DNA from: an uncultured delta proteobacterium
GTDB lineage: Bacteria > Desulfobacterota > Syntrophia > Syntrophales > UBA2185
Reading direction: 5' to 3'
Assembly (NCBI GenBank): GCA_963695875.1
Contig: CAVOID010000010.1
Span: 149,861-213,860 of the forward strand
Length of the DNA: 64,000 bases
The position numbers and the translations under genes are program-made. This document shows, piece by piece, positions 4,319 through 51,156 of this stretch (within the stretch, counting starts at the first letter, position 1; the number at the start of each line of letters is the position of its first letter). The notes under the pieces were generated by a model. That model did no database searches. It was not told where the DNA came from and saw nothing but the letters and a program-made list of their open reading frames with translations.

Positions 4319-4393
4319 AAACTCTGTGGCATTTAATCTGACACGCTATAACCAAGATACAATTAACCCTGGCTAAAAAGAGCTGCGGTCAGC

Positions 4394-9641: not shown

Positions 9642-9818
9642 AATCCCCCGTGCCCCTTTGAGACTGTGTCACAATGTCATTATGAGGCGTGAAACGATCG
9701 AAGCAATCTCGTAACGAGCTAGAGATAAAAAGATTGCAACGCTCCCTTTGGTCGCTGACAATGACAAATAAGAATTGTGGCACTGTCTCCTTAATAGTAA
9801 AGTGGGCATGGTGGATTT
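9642..9818. repeat. Nested repeat: TIR element (9660-9789) containing a GTCAT-type REP doublet, inside a CCCCTTT/AAAG-type palindrome
   Basis: TIRs GAGACTGTGTCACAA / TTGTGGCACTGTCTC; outer arms AATCCCCCGTGCCCCTTT and AAAGTGGGCATGGTGGATT. Confidence 0.6.
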
Positions 9819-16798: not shown

Positions 16799-18472
16799 TG
16801 GGAGGACAACCTTGATTCGATGGGATTCACCCCCGGCCGGGTCTTCCGGGTCTGATTGATAAGTGTCTCCATCTTCTCAACGAGAGGTGGAAGTGATTCA
16901 GGATGGAGAGCAGATATTGCTAAGGCGTCAAACATCCGGCAGAGATTTTTAAGGATTGCTTTGTCGGGAAAGCGATCCTCTTTGTTAAAAACGCGGATGG
17001 TCGGTTTTCTAATTATGTCGAGTTCCTCAAGTATCTTCTCGACTGCCGCTATGTGACTCTCAAAATTCGGGTTGCTGACGTCAATTACATGAAGCAGGAC
17101 ATCGGCTTCCTGGAGTTCATCGAGGGTCGCTCGGAAGGCAGCGAAAAGATCCCGGGGAAGATCCCGGATGAATCCCACCGTGTCGGTTATGATGGCTTCC
17201 GTATCCCGCGGGAAGCGGAGTCGCGAGCTTTTGGGATCAAGTGTCGCAAACAGGCGGTCCTCTGTAAAAACGTCGCTTTTTGTAAGTGTATTCAGGAGAG
17301 TGGATTTGCCTGCATTTGTGTAGCCGACAATGGAGATGACGGGAAGTCGCATCCTCTCCCGTTTGATCCGGCGCTGTCCCCTTGCCTTTTCAATCTGCCT
17401 GGAGCTCCCGTTCGAGGCGGTGGATTCGATCCCTGACACGGCGCCGGTTGATCTCAAGCTTTGTCTCTCCGGGCCCCCTTCCCCCGATGCCTCCCGTAAG
17501 CCTTGACATGGCCGTGTTTTTCGTAACCAGCCTGGGAAGCAGGTACTTCAACTGGGCGAGCTCTACCTGGAGTTTGCCTTCCATGCTGTGGGCGCGCCGG
17601 GCAAAGATATCGAGAATTACCTGGGTGCGGTCGATGACTTTCATCTCCGTAAAATCGGCAATCGATCGGATCTGCGCCGGTGTCAGTTCATGGTCGAAGA
17701 TGAGGAGATTGGCGCCTATCTGCAAGGCCCGGATGACAAGCTCCGAGATTTTTCCCCTGCCGAGGATGTATCGGGGATCTATCTGCTCACGGTACTGGAT
17801 GACTGTATCGAAGACCTCAACCCCGCATGACCGGGCAAGTTCCTTCAGCTCGTTGAGAGAGGCCTGGCTGTCAGCAAGGGGATTCGTCTCCACGCGGATT
17901 AGAATGGCACGGTCGACGGAATCTACTTTCCGGGTCTTCTGCTTTCTTGCAAATTCGCTCTCCAGGGTCTGGATGAAGGCGGCAAAGTCGAGGTGCATCT
18001 CCGACGGCCGGTCCTTCTCCATGATAAACCAGTATCTCCCTTCCGGGTTTTCCGGGATCAGATGGGCCGTGTGGGCATACCCGGGCAGTCCATCCTCCTC
18101 CGCCTCAACGGCACAGACGAGATCGAGGCGCAGGAGCGCCAGGTCCGTCAGGTCATCGGTGGTGAGACCCTCGCCGTTTAGATGGGTATGGATCAGGCGA
18201 AGTCCCTTGAAGCGGGTGGAAGAAGAACGAAACCCGTCGAGGCCGGGGATCATGATTTCCTTGTGTGAACCGACTATCACGTAGGCGATCTCGCCTCTGC
18301 GGCTGATCAGGATGCCGATCTGACGGTTGATTTCCCGGGAAAGAGAGGTAAGTGATCTCGCCAGTTCGTGGGTAACGATGCGTTCCGGAGGTACTTTCCT
18401 CCGGTAGAGCTGATCGATCCTTCTGATCTGTTCCGCCCCGAGACCGGTCAGGTTGCCATAGACTCTATCGAT
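16795..18472 (-). CDS. hflX: GTPase HflX (long form), frameshift near 17400; start codon uncertain
   Basis: DRTQVILDIFA, GRGPGETKLE, GYTNAGKST, LFATLD, DTVGFI, NK.D. Confidence 0.9.
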
Positions 18473-18689
18473 TGCCGGCCCCCTTGCTTTCAGCCGCCCG
18501 TGCCGCCATTCTCCTGGCCAGGCGTTCCTCATATCTTTCCCGGCTGTGGAAACTGGTGCGCCCTATCAACTTCTTCGGATTAAGAGCCCCGCATGCGGGA
18601 CAGGCGAGACCTTCCTGACCTTCCCCGACTTTCATAAGACGTTCAAAGATATGCTTGCAGGTACTGCATTCAAATTCATAGATCGGCAT
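18465..18689 (-). CDS. FmdB-family zinc-ribbon protein
   Basis: MPIYEFEC..C.H.FE...CP.CG. Confidence 0.85.
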   Translation of the reverse strand: MPIYEFECSTCKHIFERLMKVGEGQEGLACPACGALNPKKLIGRTSFHSRERYEERLARRMAARAAESKGAGNR

Positions 18690-18990: not shown

Positions 18991-20451
18991 TTAGAAGCTG
19001 AGGGTCAGCTTGTGCGTCAAGAGATAGTCGTTATTGACAGTAGCTGCGGCCTGGGTGCCTTTCCAGAAGTCACCTGCCCAGAGGTAGCCGAACCCGACCA
19101 TGTAGCTCAGGTTGTCATAGATCTTGTACGTTGCCGTAAGATCACCTTCCCAGCCGTAGTCTTTAGAAATCCAGCCGTTGTGTCACGGGTTTATCCGCTT
19201 TTGCCCAGGTGACGGCCAGCCTTTACATCCAGTTTGGGTATAGGCTTGATGCCTACGAATACCTGCACGATATAGGCATTGCTGATACCGGCGGCGCCCG
19301 TTGACGAGTTATTGTCGGGGGCCAACTGCAGTCGGCATAACGGGCATCAACCCAGACCGCCGTTCCATCTCATCGAATCGTAGTTGAAGAGCATCAGGCA
19401 GGGGTTGAAGTCAGTGCCGCCAGGCTGACCGGCCGTATTGGTTGTGTTGGGCGAGCCGGAGACTGCCGGGCTGTCACCCTCTACATAGACGAACGTAGCG
19501 CCGACATAGGCCGGTTTGATATCTACGCTGGCCATGGCATAACCGGACCAGCCATTGAGTGTGACATCACCGTGTAGTGTTGAACGGCATCGCTTTCATA
19601 AGCGACTGTCTTGCCGTAACGGTAAATGACCTCACCCTCTGTATAGACGGGACCAAACTGCGCCTTCCAGTAGGGCAGGAACAGCCAGTACTTCGTTTTG
19701 TACCCGTTGTCCGACCGGAGCAGTAGGTCGCACCGCTGGTGGTAGTCATTCCACACGTACTTGACGAGGAGACCGGCATTCCCCTTGGCCCAGGTGTAGA
19801 CGAAGGCGGCCGCGGGGGCATCCTCCTGCGCATCTACCTGCGCACCGGCATTACTGGGACTGATTGAAGGGGACTGGGTTTCGTTCCCTCGTACCAGTCA
19901 TAGCAGGGCTATAAGTGTCCAGGGACCGGTGAAGTAATCGTATCTGATCCTGGGACCGAAAACGAGGTCGCCGGAATCACCGAATGTAGGTGCCCCATGC
20001 GGTCTGCGTCTGGTAACCAACCCTCACACGGCCGCCGAGGATATTGGCGGTCACATACACATTGTTGAACCTGATGTTTTCCAGCTTCCTGGTTATAGGC
20101 TTCCTGCTGAGCCGTACCAGTGGCACTAAAAGGGTTGATTCGTCTATGGTACGATGTTGTATGGCCAACGCCCCATACCCTTTCCATGATATCGGCCCTG
20201 GTCACCAGTTTCAGGCCTTCCGCTACCTGGAAGTCCGTCTGAAGCCTTAACCTCTGCCACATATCGGATATGGATGCACCCTCACGGGAGCTCGACTGTA
20301 GCCAGTATCATCATCTTGACAGGGCGCGGTTGCTGTCGTAATAACCCTGTACGATATACGTGCCGCTGAACTTCACGTCAGCGCCCAATACGGGCATGGT
20401 GAAGGCCATGATCAGCCCAACTGATAGTAAAACTATCCAAAACTTTCTCAT
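18991..20451 (-). CDS. Outer-membrane porin-like beta-barrel protein, multiple frameshifts
   Basis: Signal peptide MRKFWIVLLSVGLIMAFTMPVLGA-DVKFSG, QRLRLQTDFQVAEGLKLVTR, C-terminal THKLTLSF; GGAGG RBS. Confidence 0.7.
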
Positions 20452-20613
20452 TTTTTTCCTCCTGTTTACTGTTTGTTAAATCGATCTTTCCGGGCATGTA
20501 GAATGAAAGATCATCCTTTTCTCAAACTACTTTTCCGGCCTGCGGGGTTTCCCGAGGCCTCTTCATTGAACCCTTTATCACCTCCTTTCTTTGAAGTTCC
20601 TAATTCTTGAAAT

Positions 20614-20642
20614 TTTCTAACACCGCCAAAATTCATTGTCAA
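20614..20642 (-). promoter_or_regulatory. Sigma70-type promoter of the porin gene
   Basis: TTGACA-17 nt-TAGAAA with an extended -10 TG. Confidence 0.55.
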
Positions 20643-20665
20643 GAATTTTTGCCGGCATTTAAAAA

Positions 20666-20711
20666 AATCCACTCTTGACCCCCCTTTGCTAAAGGGGGGA
20701 TGGGGGGATTT
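20666..20711. repeat. CCCCCTTT/AAAGGGGG-type REP palindrome
   Basis: AAATCC..CCCCCTTTGCTAAAGGGGGGATGGGGGGATTT; related copy at 38434-38478. Confidence 0.55.
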
Positions 20712-20882
20712 CCCACGGGAGCTGGTCTAATAATCGCCCCCGGTCTTGTTTTGCCTAGCAATCCGTGTACCAACAAGAAGATCCATTCCTTCCGGAAGAG
20801 TTTCAATACCTGTAATGAACTGAAAATAAAAGGGAAAATACCTAAAAAAGTTCAGCCGCAGGGGAAAAAGAAGATTATGTAT

Positions 20883-21035
20883 GAGAATTTTGAGAAGCTG
20901 CATCTGATGCCATTGCGACCAATCAATTGTCATTTCGACCAAAGGGAGAAATATTATAAGCTATTGACAATACTAAATATTGCCACGTCGCTTCACTCCT
21001 CGCAATGACCTGGTGTGCAACTATTCAAAATCCTC
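20883..21035. mobile_element. MITE-like element enclosing a REP doublet
   Basis: Imperfect TIRs GAGAATTTTGAGAAG / CTATTCAAAATCCTC around TGTCATTTCGACC..CTCGCAATGAC. Confidence 0.5.
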
Positions 21036-21165
21036 AAACGTGAACCAGGAGTGTGTCAAAAAGAACACACAATAAATTGATTAGCTTGAATTTTTACAAC
21101 ATGATTTGATAATTTTTTATCATGTCCATATCCATTTTAATAAAAGCTTAGCATAATCCAGAGCA

Positions 21166-21244
21166 GTCATTGCGAGTGAAGCGAAGATATCTCGTAATCA
21201 ATTGATATAATGAGATCGCTACGTCGCTATCACCTCGTGATGAC
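21166..21244. repeat. REP-like inverted doublet (GTCATTGCGAG family)
   Basis: GTCATTGCGAGTGAAGCGAAGATATCTC..GAGATCGCTACG..CTCGTGATGAC. Confidence 0.6.
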
Positions 21245-21332
21245 TCGCGACGACTATGCAACGATTTTCTAAGTATGTCAGCCCAGCATTGCAAGACAAT
21301 TCACCGATCAGCATAAGAAGAGGAAATTATAA

Positions 21333-21360
21333 GTCAACCTAATTATAATTTAGGTTGACA
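21333..21360. promoter_or_regulatory. BirA (biotin repressor) operator
   Basis: GTCAACC-N13-GGTTGACA palindrome just upstream of birA; the TTGACA half could also serve as a -35. Confidence 0.8.
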
Positions 21361-21391
21361 ATTAACCGAGTGGGATGATAAGAGCGACGCC

Positions 21392-22372
21392 ATGTCCACA
21401 AAGCAGCAATTACTCATCTATTTAAAAGAGGGTAAGGGAACCTGGGTCTCCGGGGAATCACTGGCCCATAAAATGGCTATTTCCCGCACGGCCATATGGA
21501 AACATGTCCGTAACTTGAAAGAAGATGGCTATGTGATCGAATCATCACCGAAAAAGGGATATCTCCTCCGGCAGGCTTCGGACCTGCTTCTTGTAAATGA
21601 AATCCAGGAAGGGCTGAACACCAGTGTTTTCGGCAAGAGGGACATTGCTTATTTCAAGGAAACAGACTCAACCAATTTGAGGGCGAAATTTTTGGCGAGT
21701 GACGGCGCACCTGAGGGAACAGTGGTTGTCGCGGAGAGTCAAACACGGGGAAGGGGCCGAAGGGGGAGAAGCTGGTTTTCACCCTCGGGAGAGGGTATCT
21801 ATACCTCCATCATTCTGAGACCTTCCATATCCCCGAATGAAGCACCCAAGCTGACCTTGATGGCATCGGTTGCAGTTGCGGAAGCCTTACTTTCCATGAC
21901 ATCACTAGATATAAATATCAAATGGCCCAATGACATCCTCGTCAAAGGCAGGAAGATTGCCGGCATCCTGACGGAAATAAGCATGGAAATGGATAGAATT
22001 GATTATATAGTCATTGGCGTAGGCATCAATGTAAATACACCTCGCAAAAGCCTGCCCCCCGATATCCGGGACATAGCAACTTCCGTTTTCATGGAAACAG
22101 GCAAACCCTTCCCCAGAATTGCCCTGCTGCGTGCATATCTGGAGTGGCTGGAAATATATTATGAAACATTCAAGACCAAGGGCTTTGAACCTGTCATGAA
22201 TCGCTGGAAGAGCCTTGCTGATATAATCGGACATCGGGTTAGTGTGGATATGATCGACCGTGTGCGCGTCGGAGAAGTTCTCGATGTAGATAAAGACGGC
22301 TTCCTGATCCTCAAAGAACAGGGAGGCGCGCTTGAGAGGATAATTTCCGGAGACGTCACCTTACTTGAATAA
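21392..22372 (+). CDS. birA: Bifunctional biotin ligase/repressor with N-terminal HTH
   Basis: SGESLA..ISRTAIWK HTH, STN, QTRGRGRRGR.W, KWPND, KIAGIL. Confidence 0.95.
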   Translation: MSTKQQLLIYLKEGKGTWVSGESLAHKMAISRTAIWKHVRNLKEDGYVIESSPKKGYLLRQASDLLLVNEIQEGLNTSVFGKRDIAYFKETDSTNLRAKFLASDGAPEGTVVVAESQTRGRGRRGRSWFSPSGEGIYTSIILRPSISPNEAPKLTLMASVAVAEALLSMTSLDINIKWPNDILVKGRKIAGILTEISMEMDRIDYIVIGVGINVNTPRKSLPPDIRDIATSVFMETGKPFPRIALLRAYLEWLEIYYETFKTKGFEPVMNRWKSLADIIGHRVSVDMIDRVRVGEVLDVDKDGFLILKEQGGALERIISGDVTLLE

Positions 22373-22454
22373 TGGGTGAAGCGTTCCTTATATTGTGTGT
22401 CATTCGGACCAAAGTATGTCCCACTGGAGTTTAGACAGGAAGGAGAAATCATCA

Positions 22455-23832
22455 ATGGCAAGGAATCGCCAGAAAAGACTGGAAAATGACGATAAAAAAT
22501 ACATCTGGCATCCCTTTACCCAGATGCGGGGTTACATGAAGGAAAAGGCCCTGATCATTGAGGAAGGGGAAGGATGCATCCTAAAGGACATTGAGGGCAA
22601 TTGTTATATCGACGGTGTTTCTTCTCTCTGGACAAATGTTCATGGGCACAGAAAGGAGCAACTTGACCGTGCCCTGAAAGAACAGGTTGACAAGATTGCC
22701 CATTCCACCCTGCTGGGGCTCTCCAATGTACCGGCAATAAGACTGGCCAAAAAATTAATCGACATTGCTCCCAAAGGGTTGACAAAGGTATTTTACTCCG
22801 ATAACGGTTCCACCGCCAATGAAATAGCCCTGAAGATGGCCTTCCAGTACCACCAGCAGGCTCCAACGGGTAATCGCAACAAGAAAAAATTCATTCGCCT
22901 TTCCAATGCCTACCACGGAGATACGATAGGGTCTGTGAGTATCGGAGGTATCGATCTTTTCCACTCCATGTATAAGGACCTCCTTTTCCCCTCGTACAGG
23001 GTGGATGCCCCCTACTGTTACCGCTGCGCCTTCGGGAAATCATATCCTTCCTGTGATCTGTATTGCCTGACACCATTGGAAGAGATCATGAAGGGTCACA
23101 ACCGGGAGATTGCAGCCCTGGTGATAGAGCCGGTCGTCCAGGGGGCGGGGGGAATCCTTGTCCAGCCGCCGGGATACTTGAAAAAGGTGAGAGAACTCTG
23201 CACTCGCTACAAAATCTTCATGATCGCCGATGAAGTGGCCGTCGGTTTTGGCAAGACGGGGAAGATGTTCGCCTGTGAACATGAAGATGTTGTACCGGAT
23301 ATCATGGCCCTGGCCAAGGGGATTGCGGGAGGATATCTGCCGCTTGCGGCCACACTCGTGACGGAAGAGATCTACGAGGGATTCCTGGGAGAGTTCGAAG
23401 AGTTCAAAACCTTCTTCCACGGACATACCTTTACGGGAAATCCCCTGGCCTGTGCAGTCGCCCTTGCCAATCTTGAGGTCTTCGAAGAGGAGCGTACCAT
23501 GGATAACCTCCAGAAGAAAATTGTCCATCTTAAGAAAAAGACTAAAGCCATTTACCGAACTCGCCCACGTCGGCGAGGTGCGCCAGTGCGGATTCATGGT
23601 GGGTATCGAGCTTGTTGCGGATAGAAAGACAAAGGAACTTTTCCCCATTGAGAAGAGAACCGGTCATAGAGTCATTATGGAAGCAAGAAAAAGGGGCGTG
23701 ATCATCCGTCCCCTGGGGGATGTAATCGTCCTGATGCCGCCGCTCAGCATTTCTGCAGGGGAGATCGATCAGCTCTGTGACGCGGTATACGAGTCGATCC
23801 GGGTTGTCACTGAGGGGCGGGGAAAATCGTGA
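22455..23832 (+). CDS. bioA: Adenosylmethionine--8-amino-7-oxononanoate transaminase, frameshift near 23535
   Basis: [51 protein letters not shown]. Confidence 0.93.
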
Positions 23833-23953
23833 CGTCCGAGACGCCCAGCATACCAAGCGGCAGGACAAACATCGCGCTAAACTGCACGGCTGTAAGACGG
23901 GCGTCTTACCTGTCTATAACGAATGAAATCAGTATCAGGCAGAGTACTGACCG

Positions 23954-24262
23954 ATGAACATCGAAGGAACTAACAAGGATACCTGGGAGGGTGTATTTTA
24001 TTTTTCTCCCGATGACAGCATCTACCGGGATCATTTCCCCGGTTATCCGGTCGTCCCGGGAAGCCTGATCGTCCATGCCTTCCTGCAAGCGGCAGCAGAG
24101 GCCGGCATCACGGAAGAGTGTCGCTCACTGGAAAATTTCCGCTTCCGGGAGTTTCTCACCCCCGGTCGTTATTCATTTCGTATAGAACGTCAGGAGGACC
24201 GGTTGAGCTGCCTGATTTATCGCGGTCCGAAGAAACTGGTTACAGGAGCCTTGGGACAATGA
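23954..24262 (+). CDS. FabZ/FabA-like hot-dog dehydratase, His-containing half
   Basis: DHFPGYPVVPGSL motif; the usual downstream Glu is replaced (LIVHAF). Confidence 0.7.
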   Translation: MNIEGTNKDTWEGVFYFSPDDSIYRDHFPGYPVVPGSLIVHAFLQAAAEAGITEECRSLENFRFREFLTPGRYSFRIERQEDRLSCLIYRGPKKLVTGALGQ

Positions 24263-25003
24263 ATTTGAAATTTTCCGGGATGCGCGCCCTGCTTTTGGGG
24301 GGTACCTGCGAACTTGCCCTTACCCTGGCTAGCTTCATGATCGAGTACCTCTCTTTTTCCGATCCTGACATACAGGAACGACAAAGGACAAAACGTCATC
24401 AAAAAAGCCCTGCCGCACATGGAAGGAAAATACGACACCCGTTATCTGGACTTCGGCGACCGCGATTCGCTGGACTTACTCTTCTCTTATATTGGTGACG
24501 ATCTTGATTTTGTGGTTGATTTTGCCCAAGGAAACTATGAAAGCCTCATCGCGCAGGCGGATAGGGATAGTGTGTATCGATATTTTAGCGAGAATGTCTC
24601 CTTTCGTGCGGAGGTTTTGAAAATGGCAGGGAGGGTCATGCTGAAGAAAAGGAAAGGGAGGCTCGTCTTTATTTCATCAACGGCAGCCCCAAAGCCCAAC
24701 CCTGGTCAGGGATTTTATGCCGCTGCAAAACTGGCTTCCGAGGCCCTTTACCGGAATATGGGACTGGAACTGGGGAAACGCGGTATCACCACGGTAATTC
24801 TGCGCCCCGGATATGTCGATGCCGGAAGGGGAAAAGAATATCTTCAGGAACAGGACGGGAAAATCCTCGAGACGGTGCCGATAAAGAGGGCGATAACACG
24901 AAATGAGATTGCGGAAACTATTCTTTTCCTTCTTTCCGACAGCGCCGCCGGCATGAACGCCACGGAAATTACCATGGACGGCGGTTTATCATATAGGAAA
25001 TGA
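24259..25003 (+). CDS. FabG-like SDR (3-oxoacyl-ACP reductase), frameshifted near 24340-24360
   Basis: GRLVFISS, YAAAK catalytic motif, PGYVD, MDGG; ATGA overlap with the upstream gene. Confidence 0.75.
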
Positions 25004-25025
25004 GGGAAATAGCTTTGAGGGTTAC

Positions 25026-25397
25026 ATGGATACTTTTGCAGAGATAAAGAAGATACTAGTAGAACTCCTTGATCTTGAAGGCGGGGAGATTATGCCGGAG
25101 ACCTTTTTGATAAAGGAGTTGGGCGCCGAATCCATCGATCTTCTGGAGCTTGCGGTCGCCATAAACAGTCGCTTCAAAATCGCCGTAAGGGATGAGGCTA
25201 TTTTTCTGACACGTTTCCGCCTGCATATAACCGAAGCTACACAGCAGGGAAAAGAAATCGTCTCTTATCTTGCCGGGAAATACCCACATCTTACGGAAGA
25301 CCGGATTACCAAAATCGTCGCACACATCGGTGAAGGACCTCAATTGCAAATCAAGGATCTGATCAGCTACATAACGTGTCAGTTACAGGCGGTTTGA
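25026..25397 (+). CDS. Acyl carrier protein, extended (123 aa)
   Basis: ELGAESIDLLEL phosphopantetheine-serine motif plus an insertion of about 40 aa. Confidence 0.8.
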   Translation: MDTFAEIKKILVELLDLEGGEIMPETFLIKELGAESIDLLELAVAINSRFKIAVRDEAIFLTRFRLHITEATQQGKEIVSYLAGKYPHLTEDRITKIVAHIGEGPQLQIKDLISYITCQLQAV

Positions 25398-25405
25398 AAA
25401 CTTAT

Positions 25406-26041
25406 ATGGAGACGCCTCTGGACAAACTGATTCAAGGAAGAAGAAGCATCCGGAAATATAGGCCGGATATTCCTCCAGAAGAATGGATAAAAAAGATGAT
25501 CATGACGGCAATGAAAGCGCCATCGCCGACAAACAGTCAGCCTGTGCGGTTTATCCGTATACTCACCCCGGAATTAAAGGAACAGTTGCGCCAAGCCATG
25601 GAACACGGAAGGGAGTGTTTACTAGAGACTGTTAAAGATGCCCCCAGTTCCAAAAGATTAAGAAATTGGATCACCGCCTACTTTAGGTTCTCGGAATTCA
25701 TGTTCCATGCACCCATTCTTTTTGCCGTGGGTACAACCGCGACCTTCGTCAGTCTTTCGGAAAGGCTCTTCCGGGCCGGCATGAGAGAACAGGGACACAA
25801 AAAACACAGGGATGTAGATATCGCTGTGGGTCTGGCGCTGAAAGGATATCTGTTAAAGGGGGAAGATCTGGGTCTCGGTTCCTGCATTCTTACCGCCCCT
25901 CTGATTTTCATCGAGGAGCCGGAAACGATTTTTCCTTTGAAAGGAATAGAGATCAAGTGCTTTGTGACCACGGGATATCCCGATGAAGAACCGGATTACA
26001 TCAAAAGAAAAGATTTTAATGAAATCTACAGGGAAATCTGA
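25406..26041 (+). CDS. Nitroreductase-family flavoprotein
   Basis: RRSIRKY, APS..N.QP..F, LGLGSC, TGYP. Confidence 0.88.
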   Translation: METPLDKLIQGRRSIRKYRPDIPPEEWIKKMIMTAMKAPSPTNSQPVRFIRILTPELKEQLRQAMEHGRECLLETVKDAPSSKRLRNWITAYFRFSEFMFHAPILFAVGTTATFVSLSERLFRAGMREQGHKKHRDVDIAVGLALKGYLLKGEDLGLGSCILTAPLIFIEEPETIFPLKGIEIKCFVTTGYPDEEPDYIKRKDFNEIYREI

Positions 26042-27272
26042 ATTGAAGAGAAGAATTGTCATTACTTCAGTGGGGATTATCTCCTCCCTCGGCCATCAGC
26101 ATGCTGAGATTATACAAAATCTCAAAGAGGGAAAAGTTAATTTTGCCAGGCCCGTCTTTGATAATGACGTCGTTATCGCGCCTGTGGCGAACTTCAATAT
26201 CCGGGATCATACGGGACGTTTCAAGGACGGCCGCTATCTTAGCCGGGGTGCTAAGTTTGCCGTTGCCGCCGCGATGGCGGCAATAAAAAATTCAGGTTAC
26301 AAAAAGGAGGATCTGGCAGAAGGGGGGCTTTTCGTCGGCACAGGCCCGAACCTCGATATCGGCGGCGAATTCCCGGATGTCCATGGAGGAAACATTGACC
26401 GGGAAGACCTCCAGGCCTTGTGGATTCTGAAATTTCTTCCCAACACCGCCGCATCCATTATCGCCAAACTGGCGGGGATCCATGGAGAGAACCTGACGGT
26501 ATCTACCGCCTGTTCGGCGTCCCTGCAGGCGATCGGTGAAGCCTTTCGCAAAATAAAAGCAGGATATCTAGATTTTGCTATTGCCGGGGGAGGAGATTCA
26601 CGCCTGAGTCCCGGAGGGATTCTGGCCTACAAGAAGGCGGGCGCCCTATATGCCGGCAACAGTGATCCCGAAAAGGCAAGCCGGCCCTTTGATTGCAACC
26701 GAAAGGGCTTTGTGCCCGGTGAGGGAGGCGCCTTTTTCCTTCTGGAAGAATTGGAAAGGGCCAAAAAGCGGGGGGCGCGGATATACGGCGAAATCTGCGG
26801 TTACGCGAGTTCCCTGGATGCTTACAACATGACGGCCCCGGAAAGGGAAGGGAAGTGGGGAAGGATTGCCGTGCTTTCTGCCTTGCGGGAAGCGGAAATG
26901 TCCCCCTCGCAGATCGACGTGATTTCCACACACGGAACGGGAACATTTCTAAACGATGCCAGGGAGGCCGATCTCATCGGGGATATCTATGCAGGCTGTA
27001 GCCCCCGGGTAATGGCCCTGAAGTCCTGGATCGGGCATACCGCGGCCGCCTGTGGCACCATGGAGCTTGCGATCTCTTTGATATGCATGCAGGAGAATTA
27101 CCTTCCCGAGATCAGGAACCTGCAGGAGCCCTGCCACAGGGAAATCAACTTTGTGCGGGAGGGAGGAAGCTTTTCTTTTGGTACGTGCACCATTGAAAAT
27201 TTCGGTTTTGGCGGGCAGAACAGCGTATTGGTTGTAAAACGGAGCAATGAACTTTCTTGCGCAGGACTTTAG
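26019..27272 (+). CDS. Beta-ketoacyl-ACP synthase (FabF-like)
   Basis: TACSAS (Cys), HGTGT and KSWIGH (His-His), SRPFD, FGFGGQN. Confidence 0.9.
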   Translation: MKSTGKSELKRRIVITSVGIISSLGHQHAEIIQNLKEGKVNFARPVFDNDVVIAPVANFNIRDHTGRFKDGRYLSRGAKFAVAAAMAAIKNSGYKKEDLAEGGLFVGTGPNLDIGGEFPDVHGGNIDREDLQALWILKFLPNTAASIIAKLAGIHGENLTVSTACSASLQAIGEAFRKIKAGYLDFAIAGGGDSRLSPGGILAYKKAGALYAGNSDPEKASRPFDCNRKGFVPGEGGAFFLLEELERAKKRGARIYGEICGYASSLDAYNMTAPEREGKWGRIAVLSALREAEMSPSQIDVISTHGTGTFLNDAREADLIGDIYAGCSPRVMALKSWIGHTAAACGTMELAISLICMQENYLPEIRNLQEPCHREINFVREGGSFSFGTCTIENFGFGGQNSVLVVKRSNELSCAGL

Positions 27273-27303
27273 TCCTGCATATGAAAGCAGGCCCTTGCCA
27301 TAA

Positions 27304-27396
27304 CGTAGTTGCCAGGGAGTGAAACAACCGAAGCAATCTCCCAATGCATTAGAAACAAGGAGATTGCTACGCTCCTTGAGGGTCGCTCACAATGAC
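27304..27396. repeat. REP-like inverted doublet inside the biotin operon
   Basis: CGAAGCAATCTC..GAGATTGCTACG..GTCGCTCACAATGAC, similar to 9675-9766. Confidence 0.6.
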
Positions 27397-27455
27397 CAAA
27401 AAAGATGATTACGTCATAATCTGGCTATTGAAATGACATCTATCGAAAATATCAT

Positions 27456-27908
27456 ATGGATGTGGAAATTGTAATTGATACAGGACTGAAGGGTTTTGTA
27501 ATACTCGACCGGGTTTTGGAAGTCAGCACTTCCCAAATTGTCGGTGTCCGATCATTTTCAGATGACCCAGTCTTTTTGGGTCTGGAATCACTCGCCCAGC
27601 TTGGTGCGTATCATATCCGTTATCTCACAGGTTTTTCCAGACACGTCTTTCTGATTAAAATCTCATACTGCAGTCTCCCTCGTGGAAAAGTTATGGATGG
27701 AGAACATCTGCTCTCCGGAAACCTTCGCCATCAGAGCGAAGCTTCCTTTCTTTGTCACCTGAAGGCGGAAAAAGAGAATAGAACGATCGTAGAGGGGGAA
27801 TTTCTCTATGCCGCAGTTGACTACGATCATAATTTCCAGAGTGAAAATTTGCGTCACCACTACACAAAGGTATTTTCATGTTTGCAGAAAGATATAAAAA
27901 CAGGTTGA
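27456..27908 (+). CDS. FabZ-like hot-dog protein, Glu-containing half
   Basis: F.ILDRV and LESLAQ motifs; no HFP motif. Confidence 0.6.
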   Translation: MDVEIVIDTGLKGFVILDRVLEVSTSQIVGVRSFSDDPVFLGLESLAQLGAYHIRYLTGFSRHVFLIKISYCSLPRGKVMDGEHLLSGNLRHQSEASFLCHLKAEKENRTIVEGEFLYAAVDYDHNFQSENLRHHYTKVFSCLQKDIKTG

Positions 27909-29029
27909 TGATTCAAAAGACCACTGGTCTTTACCGTAATCCGCCGGAGGTGAGTACGAAGGAGGGGAAATATCTCCTCATGGGGAGTAGCAGGGTTCTC
28001 AATTTCGCCTCCAATGACTATCTGGGACTTAGCGTCTCCGGGGAAATGCGGCAGAAGGCGGCCCGGAATTTCCAAAAGTACGGTACATCATCTTCCTCCT
28101 CGCGTTTAGTATCCGGCAACTACTCGGTAATCAACGAAGCGGAAAAAGCATACGCATTATATTTCGGGTATTACGACACTTTATTTTTCCCGAGCGGTTA
28201 CCAGGCAAACATGGGAGTACTCTCCACCTTCCTGGAACGGGGAGACACAGTTATATTCGACAAGCACATCCATGCCAGCTCCGTCAAAGGAATGACCATG
28301 AGCGGCGCTGATTTTTACGGCTATAATCACAATTCCATGTCCCATCTTGAAAAAAGACTAAAAGCACACAGCAATGGACAGGTCGCAGTTTTAACGGAAT
28401 CCATCTTCAGCATGGATGGAGATGTTCTTGATGCCGCCGGCTTAAACAATTTAAAAAATCATTACGGCTTTCTGACAATCGTCGATGAGGCGCACGCTTT
28501 TGGCGCCGCAGGTTTCGAGGGACGGGGCTTCGCCGGTTCCGTCGCGGATATTGCCGTGGGCACATTCGGGAAGGCCTTCGGCTTTTTCGGCGCCTTTGCG
28601 CTTCTTCCCGAAGGGTTTAAGGAATACCTCTTTAATTTCTCTTCCCCTCTCATTTATACCACAACACTCCCGGAAGCACATGCCGCCACTGCTCTGGACA
28701 TCCTGGGAATCATGGAACGAAGTGAAGACAGGAGAAAAGACTTGAGAGGAATCAGTCAATTTATGAGGGAAGGCTTGCGTCGCGAGGGGTTTCAAGTTAC
28801 CGGTGATGCCCACATTCTGGCGCTCATGGTCGGGGATGAGGAAAAAGCGGTGAGGCTTTCCCGGCGGCTCCTGGAAAACGATATATTCGTCCTTCCGGCC
28901 CGGTACCCGACAGTTCCTCTCGGTCATGCCATATTGAGAATAAGCCTCACGGCACTGCTGGAAGAAGAAGACGTCAAATCGTTCATTGCTCACTTGAAGG
29001 AAACCAATAGAGAGTTCGAAAAATCCTGA
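27878..29029 (+). CDS. bioF: 8-amino-7-oxononanoate synthase
   Basis: NFASNDYLGL, SRLVSG, SGYQAN, HAS, FSMDGD, DEAH, GTFGKA, R.PTVP. Confidence 0.93.
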   Translation: MFAERYKNRLMIQKTTGLYRNPPEVSTKEGKYLLMGSSRVLNFASNDYLGLSVSGEMRQKAARNFQKYGTSSSSSRLVSGNYSVINEAEKAYALYFGYYDTLFFPSGYQANMGVLSTFLERGDTVIFDKHIHASSVKGMTMSGADFYGYNHNSMSHLEKRLKAHSNGQVAVLTESIFSMDGDVLDAAGLNNLKNHYGFLTIVDEAHAFGAAGFEGRGFAGSVADIAVGTFGKAFGFFGAFALLPEGFKEYLFNFSSPLIYTTTLPEAHAATALDILGIMERSEDRRKDLRGISQFMREGLRREGFQVTGDAHILALMVGDEEKAVRLSRRLLENDIFVLPARYPTVPLGHAILRISLTALLEEEDVKSFIAHLKETNREFEKS

Positions 29030-29071
29030 ATCTTGAATCCTTTTAGAAACTAAATTGGAAAAGAACTAAAA

Positions 29072-29765
29072 ATGGACAATCTATTTGTGGTGGGGACTGA
29101 TACAGGGGTGGGGAAGACCGTGCTTTCTCTTCTCTTGATGAAATTCTTTTTTTCTCGGGGATATAACCCTTTTTATCTGAAGCCAGTGCAGACCGGATGC
29201 AAGGATCCAAATGACGTCGACAGTGACGCAAGGTTTATTTACCGTTACGTTGGGCAGTTAAAAGATAAGGACCCGGCTGATTCCGTAATCTATTGTTTTA
29301 AGAATCCTAAGGCCCCCATTTTTGCCGCCCGTGATGAAGGCAAAGCAATAGACTTATCGGTTATAATAAAAGCAGTAGTTGAAAAGGCCAGCTCTTACTC
29401 GCCTCTTATTATTGAAGGAGCGGGCGGTGTCCTCGTCCCGGTGGTCGGAGGTACTTTTGTGGCTGACTTACCGATGCTAACAAATGCCAGAGCCGGTTAT
29501 TGCCGCACGGGCGGGATTGGGAACTATCAACCATACACTTCTTACCATTGAAGCCCTGACTCGCAGAGGACTTGCACCTTTAGGAGTCGTTTTAATCGAT
29601 GCGGCGAAAAAAGAAACGCCGCCGGAAATGGTCGCAGAAAACATACTGGCCATAGAGGAGGCCTCCGGTGTGAAAGTGACCGGTGTTATCGGCAGAATAA
29701 TGGAATTTTGCCAACCGCCGCAGGATTGCTATCTGCCGATTTCAAAAATGTTTGGTAAATTGTGA
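29072..29765 (+). CDS. bioD: Dethiobiotin synthase, frameshift near 29490
   Basis: GTDTGVGKT, KPVQTG, IEGAGG..VP, GLGTINHTLLT. Confidence 0.92.
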
Positions 29766-30249: not shown

Positions 30250-32226
30250 ATGGGAGAAGCGGAAAAGATTGAACTGAAGGAAGTATATCCTGTTCCCGGT
30301 TGGGTTCGCAAGCAGGCCTACATCAAATCACGAGACGAATATGAGAAGCTGTGGAAGCGTTCCATAGAAGATCCTAACGGCTTCTGGTCGGAGATTGCCT
30401 CTGAGTACGTGGAGTGGTTCAAGAAGTGGGACAAGGTAGAAGACTTTAACTTTGATGTGAACAAGGGTCCCATTTACGTCAAGTATTTTGAGGGAGGCAA
30501 GCTCAACGTCTCCTACAACTGTTTGGACAGGCATCTGAAGACGAGGGGTGACAAGATAGCCATTCAGTGGGAGGGGAATGATCCGGGAGAGGACAGGGCA
30601 TATACATACAAGGAACTCCATAGGGAGGTATGCAAGTTTGCCAACGTCCTTAAATCCCTGGGTGTGAAGAAGGGGGACAGGGTCTGTTTCTTTCTTCCCA
30701 TGATCCCGGAGCTTCCCATCGGGATGCTGGCCTGTACCCGTATTGGCGCGATACACGGTGCGGTGTTTGGTGGATTCAGCGCAGATTCTCTACGGGACAG
30801 GATTCAGGACAGCGGCTCCAAGGTACTGGTGACCTGTGACGGGACATTCCGTGGCGCCAAGGCCGTTCCCCAGAAGACAAATGCCGACGAGGCGGTGAAG
30901 ACATGTCCTTCCATCGAGAAAGTCATCGTGGTGAAGAGGGTGGGTGAGAAGATAGCATGCAGCATGCAGAAAGGCAGAGACCTGTGGTGGCACGAGGAGA
31001 TGGCGAAGGCGAGCGACGAGTGTAAGCCGGAGTCGATGGACGCTGAAGATCCCCTTTATATTCTGTATACATCAGGCTCCACGGGAAAGCCGAAGGGTGT
31101 CATGCACACAACCGGCGGGTATCTTGTGTTTGTAGCATATACTCACAAGATGATATTCGACTACCATGAGGAAGACATTTTCTGGTGCACTGCCGACATC
31201 GGCTGGGTGACGGGACACAGCTACATTATTTACGGGCCGCTTTGCAACGGCGCCACCTCGGTGATGTTTGAGGGAGTGCCGAACTACCCTGATGTAAGCC
31301 GTTTCTGGAAGGTTGTGGAAAAATATAAGGTAACGATCTTCTACACCGCCCCTACGGCCATCCGTGCCATTGCAAAGGAGGGAAGCGACTGGGTAAAGAA
31401 GGCGGATCTATCCACCCTGCGTATCTTGGGTACGGTGGGCGAGCCCATCAATCCGGAGGCATGGAACTGGTACCATCACAATATCGGACGGGACGAGTTA
31501 CCCATAGTTGATACATGGTGGCAGACGGAGACGGGGGGCATTCTGATCACGCCGCTCCCGGGCGCCATTGATCTCAAGCCCGGCAAGGCTACGGTCCCCT
31601 TTATGGGGGTATGGCCTGCCATTATCGATGAGAATGGTGAGGAGATCACAGAGACTGTTGCGAGCGGGCCGCTGTGCATCAAGAAGCCCTGGCCGGGGAT
31701 CATGCGGAGTGTTTATGGCGATCCCCTGCGGTTCCAGGAGAATTACTTTATACAGCGTCCCGGATTCTATTATACCGGTGACGGTGCTACCAGGGATGAA
31801 GACGGCTATTATCAGCTCATGGGCCGGATTGATGATGTCATCAACGTATCCGGGCACAGATTGGGGACTGCGGAGATCGAGAGCGCCCTGGTTGCCCATG
31901 AGAAGGTGGCTGAGGCTGCCGTGGTCGGGTATCCCCATGATCTCAAGGGTCAGTCCATCTATGCCTATGTGACCCTGAAGACGGGAGTGGAGAAGTCAGA
32001 CGCATTGAAGAAGGAGCTGGTGGCGCATGTCAGGACTCTGATCGGGCCCATTGCTACACCGGAGAAGCTTCAGTGGGCCGATGGCTTGCCGAAGACCCGC
32101 AGCGGTAAGATCATGAGGAGGATATTAAGGAAGGTAGCGGCGAATGAGATCAGTGAACTGGGAGATACTACTACCCTGGCCGATCCTTCCGTCGTTGACG
32201 ATATCGTGAAGAACAGGGTGCTATAA
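30250..32226 (+). CDS. acs: Acetyl-CoA synthetase (AMP-forming)
   Basis: [50 protein letters not shown]. Confidence 0.97.
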
Positions 32227-36696: not shown

Positions 36697-38403
36697 ATGA
36701 ATATGGACGGAGAGATTAAGTATATGGACAAACCATGGCTGAAATCCTACGAAAAGGGTGTACCGGCAACGATTAATTACAAAGAGCTTTGTATGCCGGA
36801 CTTTCATGGACAGCGACGGCGCAGGCCTTTCCCGATAAGACAGCCCTGATCTTTCAGGGTTACAAGCTGACGTTCAGGCAGTCTAAAGAAATGGTGGACC
36901 GATTTGCGACATGCCTTACTGATTTCGGTATCAAGCCAAGGGATGCCGTAGCGATCCTTCTTGCCCAATTTGATCCCCTGCGTTATTGCCTATCTTGCCA
37001 TACTGAAGGTCGGTGCGATCGCGGTCATGAACAATCCCCTCTATACCAACCACGAGCTCGATCATCAGTTCAATGATTCCGGGTCCAAGGCGCTGATCAC
37101 CCTTGATCTTCTGGCAAACCGCATGATTGATCTCCGGCCAAAAACCAAGATCAAGCAAATCGTGTATACATCGATCGGTGATTATCTTCCCTTCCCCAAA
37201 AATCTCCTTTTCCCGCTCGTGGCCAAGAAGAAAAAGCTCGCTGCCGATGTCAAACCGTCGACGGATGTGTTTGCATGGAAGGAGTGCATCGCCAGATACC
37301 AACCGAACCCGCCAGCCGTTCAGTTGGGTTTTGAGGATGTGGCCATGTATCAGTACACGGGAGGAACAACAGGGGTATCCAAAGGCGTAATGCTCACCCA
37401 CGCCAACCTGAGCAAACAGGTGCAGCAGATAGAGGCCTGGTTTCCCGGATTTGACAGGGGAACCGAGATCATGCTGGGAGCTCTTCCCTATTTCCATTCT
37501 TTCGGCTTGTCCACATGCGATGAATTTATCTGTCTATCAGGGATGGACACAGATATTGATTCCCAGGCCCCAGCCTCAACCTTTGCTCGAAGCCATCAGA
37601 AAATTCAGGCCGACGTTCGCTCCGCTGGTGCCGACCATGTATATCGGAATGCTCAATCACCCCGATCTGAAAAAAACAGATATGAGCTGCATCAGGGGAG
37701 CCTTCTCCGGAAGCGCTCCCCTGCCCGTGGAAGTCATCCATGACTTTGAGAAAATGACAGGGGCCATAATTGTCGAGGGATTCGGACTGACGGAAACTAC
37801 ACCTGTGACCCATATCAATCCTTTCGGCGGTGTCCGCAAGGTGGGCAGCATCGGTATCCCTATTTCAGACACTCAGTGCCGCATTGTCAGTCTTGATGAC
37901 GGCGTGACAGACGTGCCTTTGGGAGAGCCTGGGGAAGCTGATCATCAAGGGACCGCAGGTCATGAAGGGCTACAAGGACATGCCGGAAGAAACGGCGAAC
38001 ACCCTTCGGGATGGCTGGTTATATACGGGGGATATCGCTACGATGGATCAGGACGGATACTTTTACATCGTGGACCGGAAGAAGGACATGATTATCTCCG
38101 GCGGCTTCAATATCTACCCACGGGATATTGATGAGGTATTTTACCAGCACCCCAAGGTGCAGGAAGCGTGTTCCATCGGAATTCCGGATCCGAAAAGAGG
38201 GGAAAATGTGAAGGTATTCGTCGTTCTCAAGGAAGGTGATGACAGCAACAAAGGAAGAACTCATAGAATTCTGCAAAACAAGGCTTGCAACCTACAAGCT
38301 TCCGACGGAGATTGAATTCCGCAAGGAACTTCCAAAAACAAACGTGGGTAAGATCCTTCGCAAGCAGCTTAAGGCCGAGGAAATGGAGAAACGAAAAAAG
38401 TAG
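36697..38403 (+). CDS. Long-chain fatty acid--CoA ligase (FadD-like), several frameshifts
   Basis: [42 protein letters not shown] across frames. Confidence 0.88.
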
Positions 38404-38479: not shown

Positions 38480-39691
38480 TTATGCCCCAAACTTCTCCAG
38501 CCTTCTGGCATGCGCCAAGGCAAGTCCCATGAGATGAACCATCGGCATTCTTCCCAGCCCGCCGCAGATACAGTCCCTCTCACCAAATTTTTCCACCCGA
38601 TCCGGCCTGCATGTCGCTGAATATAGCAGTACCGGCAATGGATGCCAGCTATGGGAGGCAAGGGCTGCCGGCGTTGAATGATCACCCGTCACCACTAAGA
38701 CATCAGGATTTAGTTCCGTAACCAGAGGAATCAGGGAATCCACTTCTTCGATCACCTTCACTTTGGCATCGAAATTCCCGTCCTCACCTCTTGAATCGGT
38801 TGGCTTCACATGAACGAAGAAGAAATCGTATTTCTCGTAATTTTTACGGAGAGCCGAGATTTCCTCTTCAATTGTCACGGGCTGCGGACCTATAACCATT
38901 CCCAGAAGCCGGGCAATGCCGCGGTACATGGGATAACCGGCAATGGCCAGGGCGTTAAGACCAAAGCGTTCGCTTATGTATGGATACCTGCGGTAGCGGG
39001 AATAACCCCGGAGAAGCATCATATTCGCCTTACTTTCATCGGCAAGTACTCCCCTGGCTTTATCAATCAGACTCTGAAGAATGATTGCTGTTTCCTCTGC
39101 TTCCGGAACCAGGGCTTTCGGAGGTAAGGCTGAAAGACCGGTCTTCTGAGGGTCTGTTTCCTGGATATTCTCACAGAGCCTGTCTCCCCTGAGGACTAAG
39201 AGTGCACGGTGTTCCCTGACTGGTTCAAAGATAACCTCCACATCCGATATTTTCCGGATATTCTCCTGAAGCTTCCTGCAGATTCGCTTATTGGTATCGT
39301 TGTCAATCCGGCCGGCTCGCCGATCGATGACAACACCAGCCTTATCGATTGTGGCAAAGTTGATTCTGATCAGCAAGATCGCGCTCAGTCATGGGGTAAT
39401 CGATCCCGGCTGCCTCCAATATTCCCCTTCCGATGTTGTTTTTCACGGGGTCATAGCCAAAGAGGGCAAAATGGGCAGGACCGCTTCCTGGTGTTATTCC
39501 ATATCCAACTGGATCCAAAAGACCACATATGGATCTTTTAGCCAGAGCATCCATGTTGGGCGTCTTTGCTGCTTCCAGTTCCGTCTGATCCCTGCCCACC
39601 CATCGGCAGACCGCCAAGGCCATCCATGATGAGAAAAATAATCTTTGTGTCATTTTTTACCACCAGGCTTATCAATGAATTCCGGATCCAT
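38480..39691 (-). CDS. apgM: 2,3-bisphosphoglycerate-independent phosphoglycerate mutase (ApgM type), frameshifted
   Basis: IMDGLGG, TPNMD.LA, PGSGPAH, HVK.TD..G.DG, GDHSTP..HSWHP. Confidence 0.88.
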
Positions 39692-51034: not shown

Positions 51035-51156
51035 AAGTTTAAACTCCCTTTCCTGAAATTATTATTCTTTTTATATTATATTTCAATTAACTTGACTTCA
51101 TTACCACTATATCAGCAATCCGGCCGTAACTGCCTTTGCTCAATCTGATAAATGGT

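Follow-up and report, generated by a model that had tools for sequence, protein, structure and literature searches.

The subject of this work is a biotin operon at positions 21333-29765 of a 64,000-nt stretch of DNA (the window, by which we mean the whole stretch that was analyzed; positions 149,861 to 213,860 of contig CAVOID010000010.1 in GenBank assembly GCA_963695875.1) from an uncultured bacterium of the order Syntrophales. We think it likely that the operon encodes a dedicated route to pimeloyl-ACP (ACP, acyl carrier protein), which is ACP-bound, is controlled by BirA and does without BioC/BioH/BioW. Such a route had been proposed in an earlier reading of the sequence alone (the original prediction), and the order of the cassette, the operator, the pattern of BioC and BioW among relatives and published genetics all support it. 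The interpretation is right but it has already been published: at this locus a member of the Syntrophales carries the “extended” biotin operon that is known from Desulfovibrio and Syntrophobacter. New here are the complementary half-sites in two hotdog proteins, an insertion of ~45 residues in the ACP, and a distinct clade of linked BioF. The evidence consists of the gene content and order, the regulatory site, the catalytic residues, the folds, the phyletic pattern, and the published genetics of Desulfovibrio vulgaris.

Gene content of the operon

All ten genes of the operon are co-oriented on the + strand of positions 21333-29765 (open reading frame (ORF) list, Pfam and NCBIfam scans), and the originally claimed list of parts, their order and their co-orientation were all present as stated. 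The operon is headed by a BirA operator, an inverted repeat (GTCAACC-N13-GGTTGAC, 21333..21359, belonging to neither strand) that we found by pattern search. The first gene, birA (21392..22372), encodes a bifunctional biotin-protein ligase and repressor of 326 aa with HTH_11 (5e-16), BPL_LplA_LipB (8e-25) and BPL_C (1e-6) domains. It scored 221.9 bits against TIGR00121 (cut-off 83.1), and the bifunctional equivalog models scored under cut-off. It is followed by bioA (22395..23832, likely start ATG 22455), the 7,8-diaminopelargonic acid (DAPA) aminotransferase gene, whose first piece alone reached 472 bits against TIGR00508 (cut-off 405).

The six middle genes come next. They encode a small FabZ-like protein that we call hotdog-1 (23954..24262, 102 aa, Pfam FabA 1.2e-7); a FabG-like short-chain dehydrogenase/reductase (SDR) from the Pfam/NCBIfam scan, presumably a 3-oxoacyl-ACP reductase (24259..25003); a dedicated ACP (25026..25397, 123 aa, PP-binding 7e-7); a nitroreductase-fold flavin mononucleotide (FMN) protein (25376..26041, likely start ATG 25406, PF00881 3.9e-21); a FabF-like elongating ketoacyl-ACP synthase (KAS) with N and C ketoacyl-synt domains (26019..27272, starting at ATG 26019 or TTG 26043); and hotdog-2 (27456..27908, 150 aa), a FabZ-like hotdog protein that matched no Pfam or NCBIfam family and has a FabZ-like AlphaFold2 (AF2) model. 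The operon ends with bioF (27878..29029, Aminotran_1_2 1e-52), an 8-amino-7-oxononanoate synthase of a cassette-linked subtype, and with the dethiobiotin synthase gene bioD (29072..29765, TIGR00347), whose intact orthologue in G007, a relative with a complete genome, scored 130.7 bits (cut-off 83.3). Reading frames overlap by 4 nt between hotdog-1 and the reductase and by 31 nt between hotdog-2 and bioF. What had been described as two “dehydratase halves” turned out to be two separate, complete small hotdog proteins.

A dedicated synthase, reductase and carrier protein

The middle genes all fall below the NCBIfam equivalog cut-offs, and for this reason we regard them as dedicated paralogues and not as parts of the housekeeping fatty acid synthase (FAS). 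The KAS scored 281 bits against TIGR03150 (FabF, cut-off 494), the FabG-like reductase 101 bits against TIGR01830 (cut-off 298; the intact G007 orthologue was scored), and hotdog-1 26-27 bits against TIGR01750 (cut-off 155). For the ACP we obtained 34 bits against TIGR00517 (AcpP, cut-off 70), and the best ACP model gave 40 bits with a cut-off of 71. The housekeeping AcpP is encoded separately, on contig C4, and scored 93.8 bits.

In the KAS, the residues C157, H297, H332 and K327 (numbering from 26043) were invariant in all 11 aligned orthologues, and a structure search found FabF, and also FabB, as the closest structures. A Cys-His-His triad is typical of elongating synthases that are primed by ACP, and Cys-His-Asn is typical of the KAS III enzymes and BioZ, which are primed by coenzyme A (CoA) thioesters. 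By this rule, the triad and the likeness to FabF point to an ACP-primed, decarboxylating, elongating synthase and not to one of the BioZ/FabH type. BioZ and KAS III have a FabH-like fold and Cys-His-Asn, and what we found here was a two-domain FabF-like protein with His-His.

The ACP has a four-helix carrier fold, and its attachment residue Ser36 lies where helix II begins, in an invariant motif, AESID. It also has an insertion of ~45 conserved residues, which form three helices between helices III and IV. The AF2 model (predicted local distance difference test (pLDDT) 91) has helices I-III, the three extra helices and the last helix; it matches ACP structures across the canonical parts, and the insertion departs from canonical ACPs.

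Two hotdog proteins with complementary half-sites

Hotdog-1 aligns to FabZ structures via HFPxxPVxPGxLIxE and carries the catalytic-His motif HFPxxPVVPGS without the catalytic Glu. We counted residues over all orthologues extracted from the loci described below, with the G007 protein as the reference row for hotdog-1. Among 62 rows of hotdog-1, the FabZ His position was His in 61 and a gap in one. The FabZ Glu position, 14 residues past the His, was Glu in 3, Asp in 1, His in 34 and mixed in the rest. The picture is reversed in hotdog-2, where the FabZ Glu position was Glu in 73 of 73 rows and the His position, 14 residues before the Glu, was Gly in 65, Ala in 7, Ser in 1 and never His. The Glu belongs to the motif ExxAQxGA and is placed five residues into the central helix; other conserved residues of hotdog-2 are Arg55 (73/73), His63 (72/73) and His53 (68/73). 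FabZ has its catalytic His and Glu in one chain, which gives a homodimer two sites, and neither hotdog-1 nor hotdog-2 has this combination.

The active site of FabZ and FabA is formed across the dimer interface, with the His of one chain and the Glu or Asp of the other. Since the His and Glu are split between the two proteins and the FabZ site lies at this interface, hotdog-1 and hotdog-2 look like complementary halves. The residue pattern suggests a hotdog-1:hotdog-2 heterodimer; just one site would be complete in it, and a homodimer of either protein would be left with no complete site. The AF2 model of hotdog-2 (pLDDT 89) shows a hotdog fold plus a C-terminal helix, and the best fold matches were FabZ (template modelling (TM) score 0.67-0.72, E ~5e-6). 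Hotdog-2 has 407 relatives in public data; among the best 120 of these 407, nearly all that are named are called “hypothetical protein”, and Pfam domains are absent.

Heteromeric hotdog dehydratases are already known. The ApeI:ApeP pair of aryl-polyene synthesis (PDB 6qsr) likewise consists of two different small hotdogs in one specialised FAS-like cluster, and 6qsr turned up both when hotdog-1 was matched to structures by sequence and when hotdog-2 was matched by fold. The mycobacterial HadAB and HadBC dehydratases are heteromeric too, and HadAB has both catalytic residues in one subunit. Unlike in HadAB, the FabZ dyad here appears to be split, with the His in one chain and the Glu in the other.

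We also looked at the other dehydratases of these bacteria. The best FabZ-like gene elsewhere in the genome lies in a fabG-fabZ-KAS-ACP cluster (C3:221676-224863), scored 74 bits (cut-off 155) and has the His and Glu in one chain. At E <= 1e-30 none of 13 Syntrophales genomes yielded a canonical FabZ (TIGR01750), the genome of the window has none over cut-off, and the housekeeping dehydratase of the Syntrophales seems to be divergent.

The nitroreductase

The nitroreductase scored 76.4 bits against PF00881 (gathering cut-off 23.5). Its FMN-phosphate motif RRSxR (RxxSxR) is invariant at R12, R13, S14 and R16. The list of structure matches includes the enone reductase 4qlx and the C-terminal domain of FbiB (4xom). 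Since FbiB uses this domain to reduce an enoyl-type double bond, the nitroreductase fold is capable of C=C reduction. We consider the protein a candidate enoyl-ACP reductase.

Biotin genes present and absent

The genome of the window (G000) is 2.86 Mb in 16 contigs and is 82.6% complete. It has an intact bioB that is not linked to the operon (contig C13:14647-15621, 400.6 bits, cut-off 225). We found nothing in this genome over cut-off for BioC or BioH and no match for BioW or BioG, which agrees with the claimed absence of bioC, bioH and bioW. Profiling the cassette against bioC and bioW had been suggested as a check. Among 31 genomes (G000 and 30 relatives) BioC was found in none, and BioW was found in one (G030), a genome without the cassette. 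Ten of these genomes have no cassette; seven of the ten have no bioF at E <= 1e-70, and the other three have a canonical bioF, one of them together with BioW.

The BioF encoded here scored 325 bits against TIGR00858 (cut-off 426). Full-length cassette-linked BioF proteins of relatives scored 317-338 bits, and those of the three relatives with bioF but no cassette scored 452-466 bits. By these scores the cassette-linked BioF is a distinct clade, and it may be adapted to the private ACP. Because the linked proteins fall under the 426-bit cut-off, annotation pipelines may under-call this clade.

BioB comes in two types in these bacteria. The unlinked BioB is 92% identical among G000, G001 and G002, and this genus has only the unlinked type. 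With the BioB of G007, which is linked to the cluster, it shares ~40% identity, and another relative, G004, has both types (on C46 and C118).

The BirA operator

The operator GTCAACC-N13-GGTTGAC was the sole match to its pattern in the window, and 0 of 100 shuffled sequences matched. Its right half runs on to GGTTGACAA, and the distance from the end of the operator to the birA ATG is 32 nt. In the whole 2.86-Mb genome the pattern has two sites, and a reversed control pattern has 0. The second palindrome, on contig C9, lies inside a MarR-like ORF and for that reason we judged it to be a chance match. The exact consensus from the literature, TTGTAAACC-N13-16-GGTTTACAA, gave 0 matches; the GTCAACC variant of the BirA site occurs in Geobacter according to a table in Rodionov 2004 (PMC545781). 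Of the 80 related loci, 45 have a BirA palindrome at the operon head, where it stands before birA, bioB, bioA or (in two loci) hotdog-1, and the reversed control pattern had 0 matches in 907 kb.

A promoter scan found no convincing + strand promoter at the operator. There is a promoter-like element on the minus strand (TTGACT-16-TATGCT, 21310-21337) which is directed away from birA and overlaps the left arm of the operator, and it may be left over from the promoter that drives the divergent bioB in relatives. The 2.2 kb upstream of birA stands where G007, G004 and many other loci have a divergent bioB. A dispersed repeat of ~83 bp, with ~20 copies in the genome at 77-97% identity, lies at 20927-21010 (within 19200-21390).

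Conservation and distribution of the cassette

To collect relatives, one genome per species was scanned (185,579 species genomes), which gave 190 KAS relatives, and 80 loci were kept. The peptides used to retrieve the loci were specific to this KAS clade, and the counts hold for that clade only. Gene order was mapped by tblastn, and we counted the 43 loci that had at least 4.5 kb upstream and at least 3 kb downstream of the KAS.

The 80 loci come from Syntrophales, Syntrophobacterales, Desulfobacterales and Desulfarculales and from metagenome-assembled genomes (MAGs) that are unclassified “delta” or Thermodesulfobacteriota. The exact order (bioB-)bioA-hd1-fabG-acp-ntr-kas-hd2-bioF-bioD (hd1 and hd2, hotdog-1 and hotdog-2; ntr, the nitroreductase) was found in 31 of the 43 loci, and the others are close variants. 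Gene by gene, the ACP is present in all 43 loci, hotdog-1 and the nitroreductase in 42 each, hotdog-2 in 41, and the FabG-like reductase in 40. A cassette mostly apart from bio genes had been named in advance as a pattern that would speak against the pathway; bioF is adjacent in 40 of the 43.

Within the set of 31 genomes, a KAS orthologue (at least 58% identity) is present in 21: G000 itself, all 18 others of the same family, and 2 of 12 from other families of the order. Hotdog-2 had no match in 150 other genomes sampled from the phylum (the quality filter let through 146 of the 151 searched). The distribution of the cassette across the phylum is patchy. The closest KAS homologues and related public records are MAGs of Syntrophales and Syntrophaceae, which sets the organism apart from Desulfovibrio, and near-identical DNA occurs in metagenomes of peat, wetland and freshwater sediment.

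The proposed pathway

The scheme that we propose is the proposal of Trotter 2023, as described in the main text of that paper (PMC10102598), with the addition of a split dehydratase site and an adapted ACP and BioF. With ample biotin, BirA would bind the palindrome before birA and keep the operon switched off. A private type-II FAS module, encoded by the six middle genes, would work on chains with a free omega-carboxylate, without the methyl-ester disguise of BioC/BioH. The dedicated ACP would be primed by the AcpS of the cell and charged with malonate by FabD. The KAS would then condense a malonyl primer with malonyl-ACP to 3-oxoglutaryl-ACP, which the FabG-like reductase would convert to 3-hydroxyglutaryl-ACP. 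Dehydration would fall to the hotdog-1:hotdog-2 heterodimer, at a single site to which hotdog-1 would contribute His27 and hotdog-2 would contribute Glu44, and the nitroreductase-fold flavoprotein would reduce the enoyl double bond to give glutaryl-ACP. An identical second round from the glutaryl primer would yield pimeloyl-ACP. This could be used directly by the co-evolved BioF, with BioA, BioD and the unlinked BioB completing biotin. Within this scheme we infer which primer is used, how many rounds there are, that the two hotdogs form a heterodimer and that the nitroreductase serves as enoyl reductase.

A more ambitious version of the scheme joins several features that would all be unprecedented. 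The dehydratase would be an obligate split-dyad hotdog-1:hotdog-2 enzyme in which Arg55, His53 and His63 of hotdog-2 grip the omega-carboxylate, the nitroreductase-fold protein would join FabI, FabL, FabV and FabK as an enoyl-ACP reductase of a new class, and the ACP insertion would shield the charged intermediates from the housekeeping FAS and hand pimeloyl-ACP to the co-evolved BioF. We find it doubtful that all of these hold together.

Frameshifts and assembly quality

The deposited sequence has one extra base each in bioA (~23530), the reductase gene (~24346) and bioD (~29492) when compared with G002 from the same genus. The one in the reductase gene separates the Rossmann N-terminus from the remainder. 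A fourth extra base, at 26043, turned the ATG of the KAS into TTG in the alignment to G002 and probably destroyed an ATGA start/stop overlap before the KAS. bioA, the reductase gene and bioD are intact in relatives, including the complete genome G007. The original prediction made no mention of the frameshifts.

We compared the ORFs of G007 with the window and counted frame changes from the resulting table. Of ~18 frame changes over ~55 kb (~1 per 3 kb), the 8.4-kb operon has 3 and the remaining 47 kb ~15, which is a similar rate. Contigs from public runs were compared at the extra bases. The base at 24345 was missing in all four independent runs, that at 29492 in all three runs that cover the position, that at 26043 in three of the four, and that at 23532 in the single covering contig (run X4). 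The shift rate is the same outside the operon and the other assemblies are without the extra bases, which makes errors of assembly, and not gene decay, the most likely source of the three frameshifts.

Split genes occur in other parts of the window as well, for example at 4385-5757, 16810-18532, 36697-38400, 38483-39669 and 49097-51037, and MarR-, MoxR- and FabF-like genes elsewhere in the genome also appear split. The assembly seems prone to base insertion, which would depress the gene calls and the completeness (82.6%).

Alternative explanations

Several observations weigh against the proposed pathway. A literature search, with subscription journals largely outside it, found no biochemistry for any member of the cassette, so we infer every chemical step. 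The absence of alternative routes holds for BioC, BioH, BioW and BioG, in a genome that is 82.6% complete. The operator has a spacer of 13 nt, and the 45 related loci with a palindrome have 14 (27 loci), 15 (15 loci) or 16 (3 loci) but never 13; given this difference, a base may be missing here in the assembly. For the dehydratase, the fold search with hotdog-2 also matched hotdog thioesterases, at a lower TM (0.54-0.62), and a profile-profile comparison of hotdog-1 with hotdog-2 aligned 16 columns at a probability of 0.8%, too little to be informative. The equivalence of Glu44 of hotdog-2 with the FabZ Glu rests on the ExxAQxG motif, its place in the central helix, and fold matches that come without a residue table. 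The public-run contigs are 93-99% alike and may represent other strains, which leaves some room for strain-specific pseudogenes. The closest solved structures of the nitroreductase are 3eo8 (BluB-like), 3gfa and iodotyrosine deiodinases, and these are not known ene-reductases. The genome also has two FabK-like genes (260-270 bits against TIGR03151), which could supply the enoyl reductase.

These last two points favor a reading in which a housekeeping FabK-like enzyme or FabI reduces the enoyl-ACP, and the flavoprotein supplies reduced flavin or acts on another intermediate. One of the fully covered loci (L106) has no nitroreductase, and the main text of Trotter 2023 (PMC10102598) keeps both options. 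However, the nitroreductase is in the cassette in the other 42 of the 43 loci, always between the ACP and the KAS, the cassette encodes all other activities of the elongation cycle, and the nitroreductase fold includes C=C reducers (4qlx and FbiB). Biotin synthesis in D. vulgaris also requires a nitroreductase, though an unlinked one (PMC10102598). We regard a housekeeping enoyl reductase as possible, and we lean toward the flavoprotein of the cassette. It is unlikely, in our view, that the cassette runs through one round only, from a glutaryl primer taken from the glutaryl-CoA pool of the cell, with a logic like that of BioZ and no malonyl start. This had been offered as an alternative in the original prediction, and the number of rounds is not fixed by the sequence. 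Syntrophales do handle glutaryl-CoA and pimeloyl-CoA in the metabolism of benzoate and cyclohexane-carboxylate. Against a single round, the triad of the KAS is Cys-His-His and not the Cys-His-Asn of KAS III and BioZ, and the cassette encodes no acyltransferase or acyl-ACP synthetase that could load glutarate. Loci of Desulfobacterales, Desulfarculales and Syntrophobacterales have the cassette too, and a pool of glutaryl-CoA cannot be taken for granted there.

The frameshifts raise another question, which is whether the operon is decaying and the strain is a biotin auxotroph. In the deposited sequence 3 of the 10 genes are interrupted, and the contigs without the extra bases may belong to other strains. 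But equally frequent shifts (~1 per 3 kb) are seen in unrelated genes across the window, the MarR-, MoxR- and FabF-like genes elsewhere appear split too, and the completeness is only 82.6% despite an assembly of just 16 contigs. The genes are otherwise well conserved, with no stop codons or deletions, and real decay seems to us very improbable. We give even less credit to the idea that the cassette makes something other than a biotin precursor and is a mere neighbor of the bio genes, and we would be astonished if it proved correct. The cassette lies between bioA and bioF with overlapping reading frames and under a BirA operator, it does so in dozens of lineages, and the homologous genes of D. 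vulgaris are needed specifically without biotin (PMC10102598). A two-round pathway to pimeloyl-ACP, dedicated to biotin, is the reading that we prefer.

Relation to known systems

The cassette has a history in the literature. Rodionov 2004 predicted a novel pimeloyl route and gave BirA sites with their consensus (PMC545781), and this is the comparative genomics of FAS-like genes in Desulfovibrio bio operons that the original prediction had mentioned. The same prediction knew of no biochemical characterization. We also found none in the literature, but the D. vulgaris genetics of 2023 had been missed. In that study, random bar code transposon-site sequencing (RB-TnSeq) identified ten D. vulgaris genes that are specifically important without biotin (Trotter 2023, PMC10102598). 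Nine of the ten lie in DVU2558-DVU2565 and include FAS-like genes, and the tenth is an unlinked nitroreductase, DVU1220. The paper reports comparable clusters in two further Desulfobacterota orders and in Desulfurispirillum, with the nitroreductase among the cluster genes of Syntrophobacter fumaroxidans and Desulfobacter vibrioformis, and it states that the biochemistry remains to be done. Its main text names neither Syntrophales nor a heterodimer, and its figure S3 may list more taxa (PMC10102598).

Going by the published description, DVU2558-DVU2565 of D. vulgaris Hildenborough and the operon studied here both have an ACP, a FabF-like KAS, a 3-oxoacyl-ACP reductase and two FabZ-like proteins among bioF, bioA and bioD. 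Both have a BirA site, both are without bioC, bioH and bioW, and both come with a nitroreductase-like protein. They differ in that the D. vulgaris nitroreductase is unlinked, has a predicted [4Fe-4S] and is only distantly related, whereas here the nitroreductase is in the cassette. In D. vulgaris birA is divergent and bioB is in the cluster; here birA opens the operon and bioB lies on another contig. The variant described for Syntrophobacter and Desulfobacter is closer, with the nitroreductase inside the cluster as it is here. We made this comparison through a locus in a Syntrophobacter sp. MAG (L086), not through the named strains, and it has the same gene order with 43-67% identity gene for gene. 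Several loci of Syntrophobacteraceae and Desulfobacterales share this gene order; the operon here differs in coming from Syntrophales.

The BioC-BioH route of E. coli, which runs through the housekeeping FAS II, follows the same logic, with two elongation cycles with malonyl-ACP that lead to a C7 diacid thioester for BioF, as the main text of Trotter 2023 sets out (PMC10102598). Unlike E. coli, this operon has no methyltransferase or esterase, and its enzymes and ACP are dedicated paralogues below housekeeping cut-offs. The BioZ of alpha-proteobacteria, a KAS III-type enzyme with a glutaryl-CoA primer, is likewise described as a dedicated ketosynthase for a pimeloyl chain with a free carboxylate. 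However, BioZ is FabH-like and leaves the rest to the host FAS, and the operon here has a FabF-like Cys-His-His KAS together with its own reductase, dehydratase, flavoprotein and ACP.

This locus does not add a new kind of system, and its value is in residue-level predictions for the chemistry of the pathway. Among bacteria without BioC/BioH, BioW, BioI, BioZ or BioE, the cassette is the main candidate for making the pimelate moiety in many anaerobes of peat, sediment and digesters. A route that is free of methyl esters would help in engineering the production of biotin or pimelate.

Neighboring features

An acetyl-CoA synthetase gene lies at 30250-32226, after a gap of 484 nt behind bioD. It is syntenic only within the family (88-93% identity in 9 of the 43 fully covered loci), and it is probably outside the biotin operon.

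The intergenic region between the KAS and hotdog-2 (27273..27455, assigned to neither strand) is strain-specific and is outside the conserved operon. It belongs to an insert of ~214-232 nt (window 27233-27464) that has an inverted repeat and is not present in G002 from the same genus. Public-run contigs in three of the four runs connect 27232 to 27465 via 18 other letters. One copy of the insert, 77% identical, is found at window 9686-9773 (C10:159546-159633), and the insert may be a small mobile repeat that landed inside the operon.

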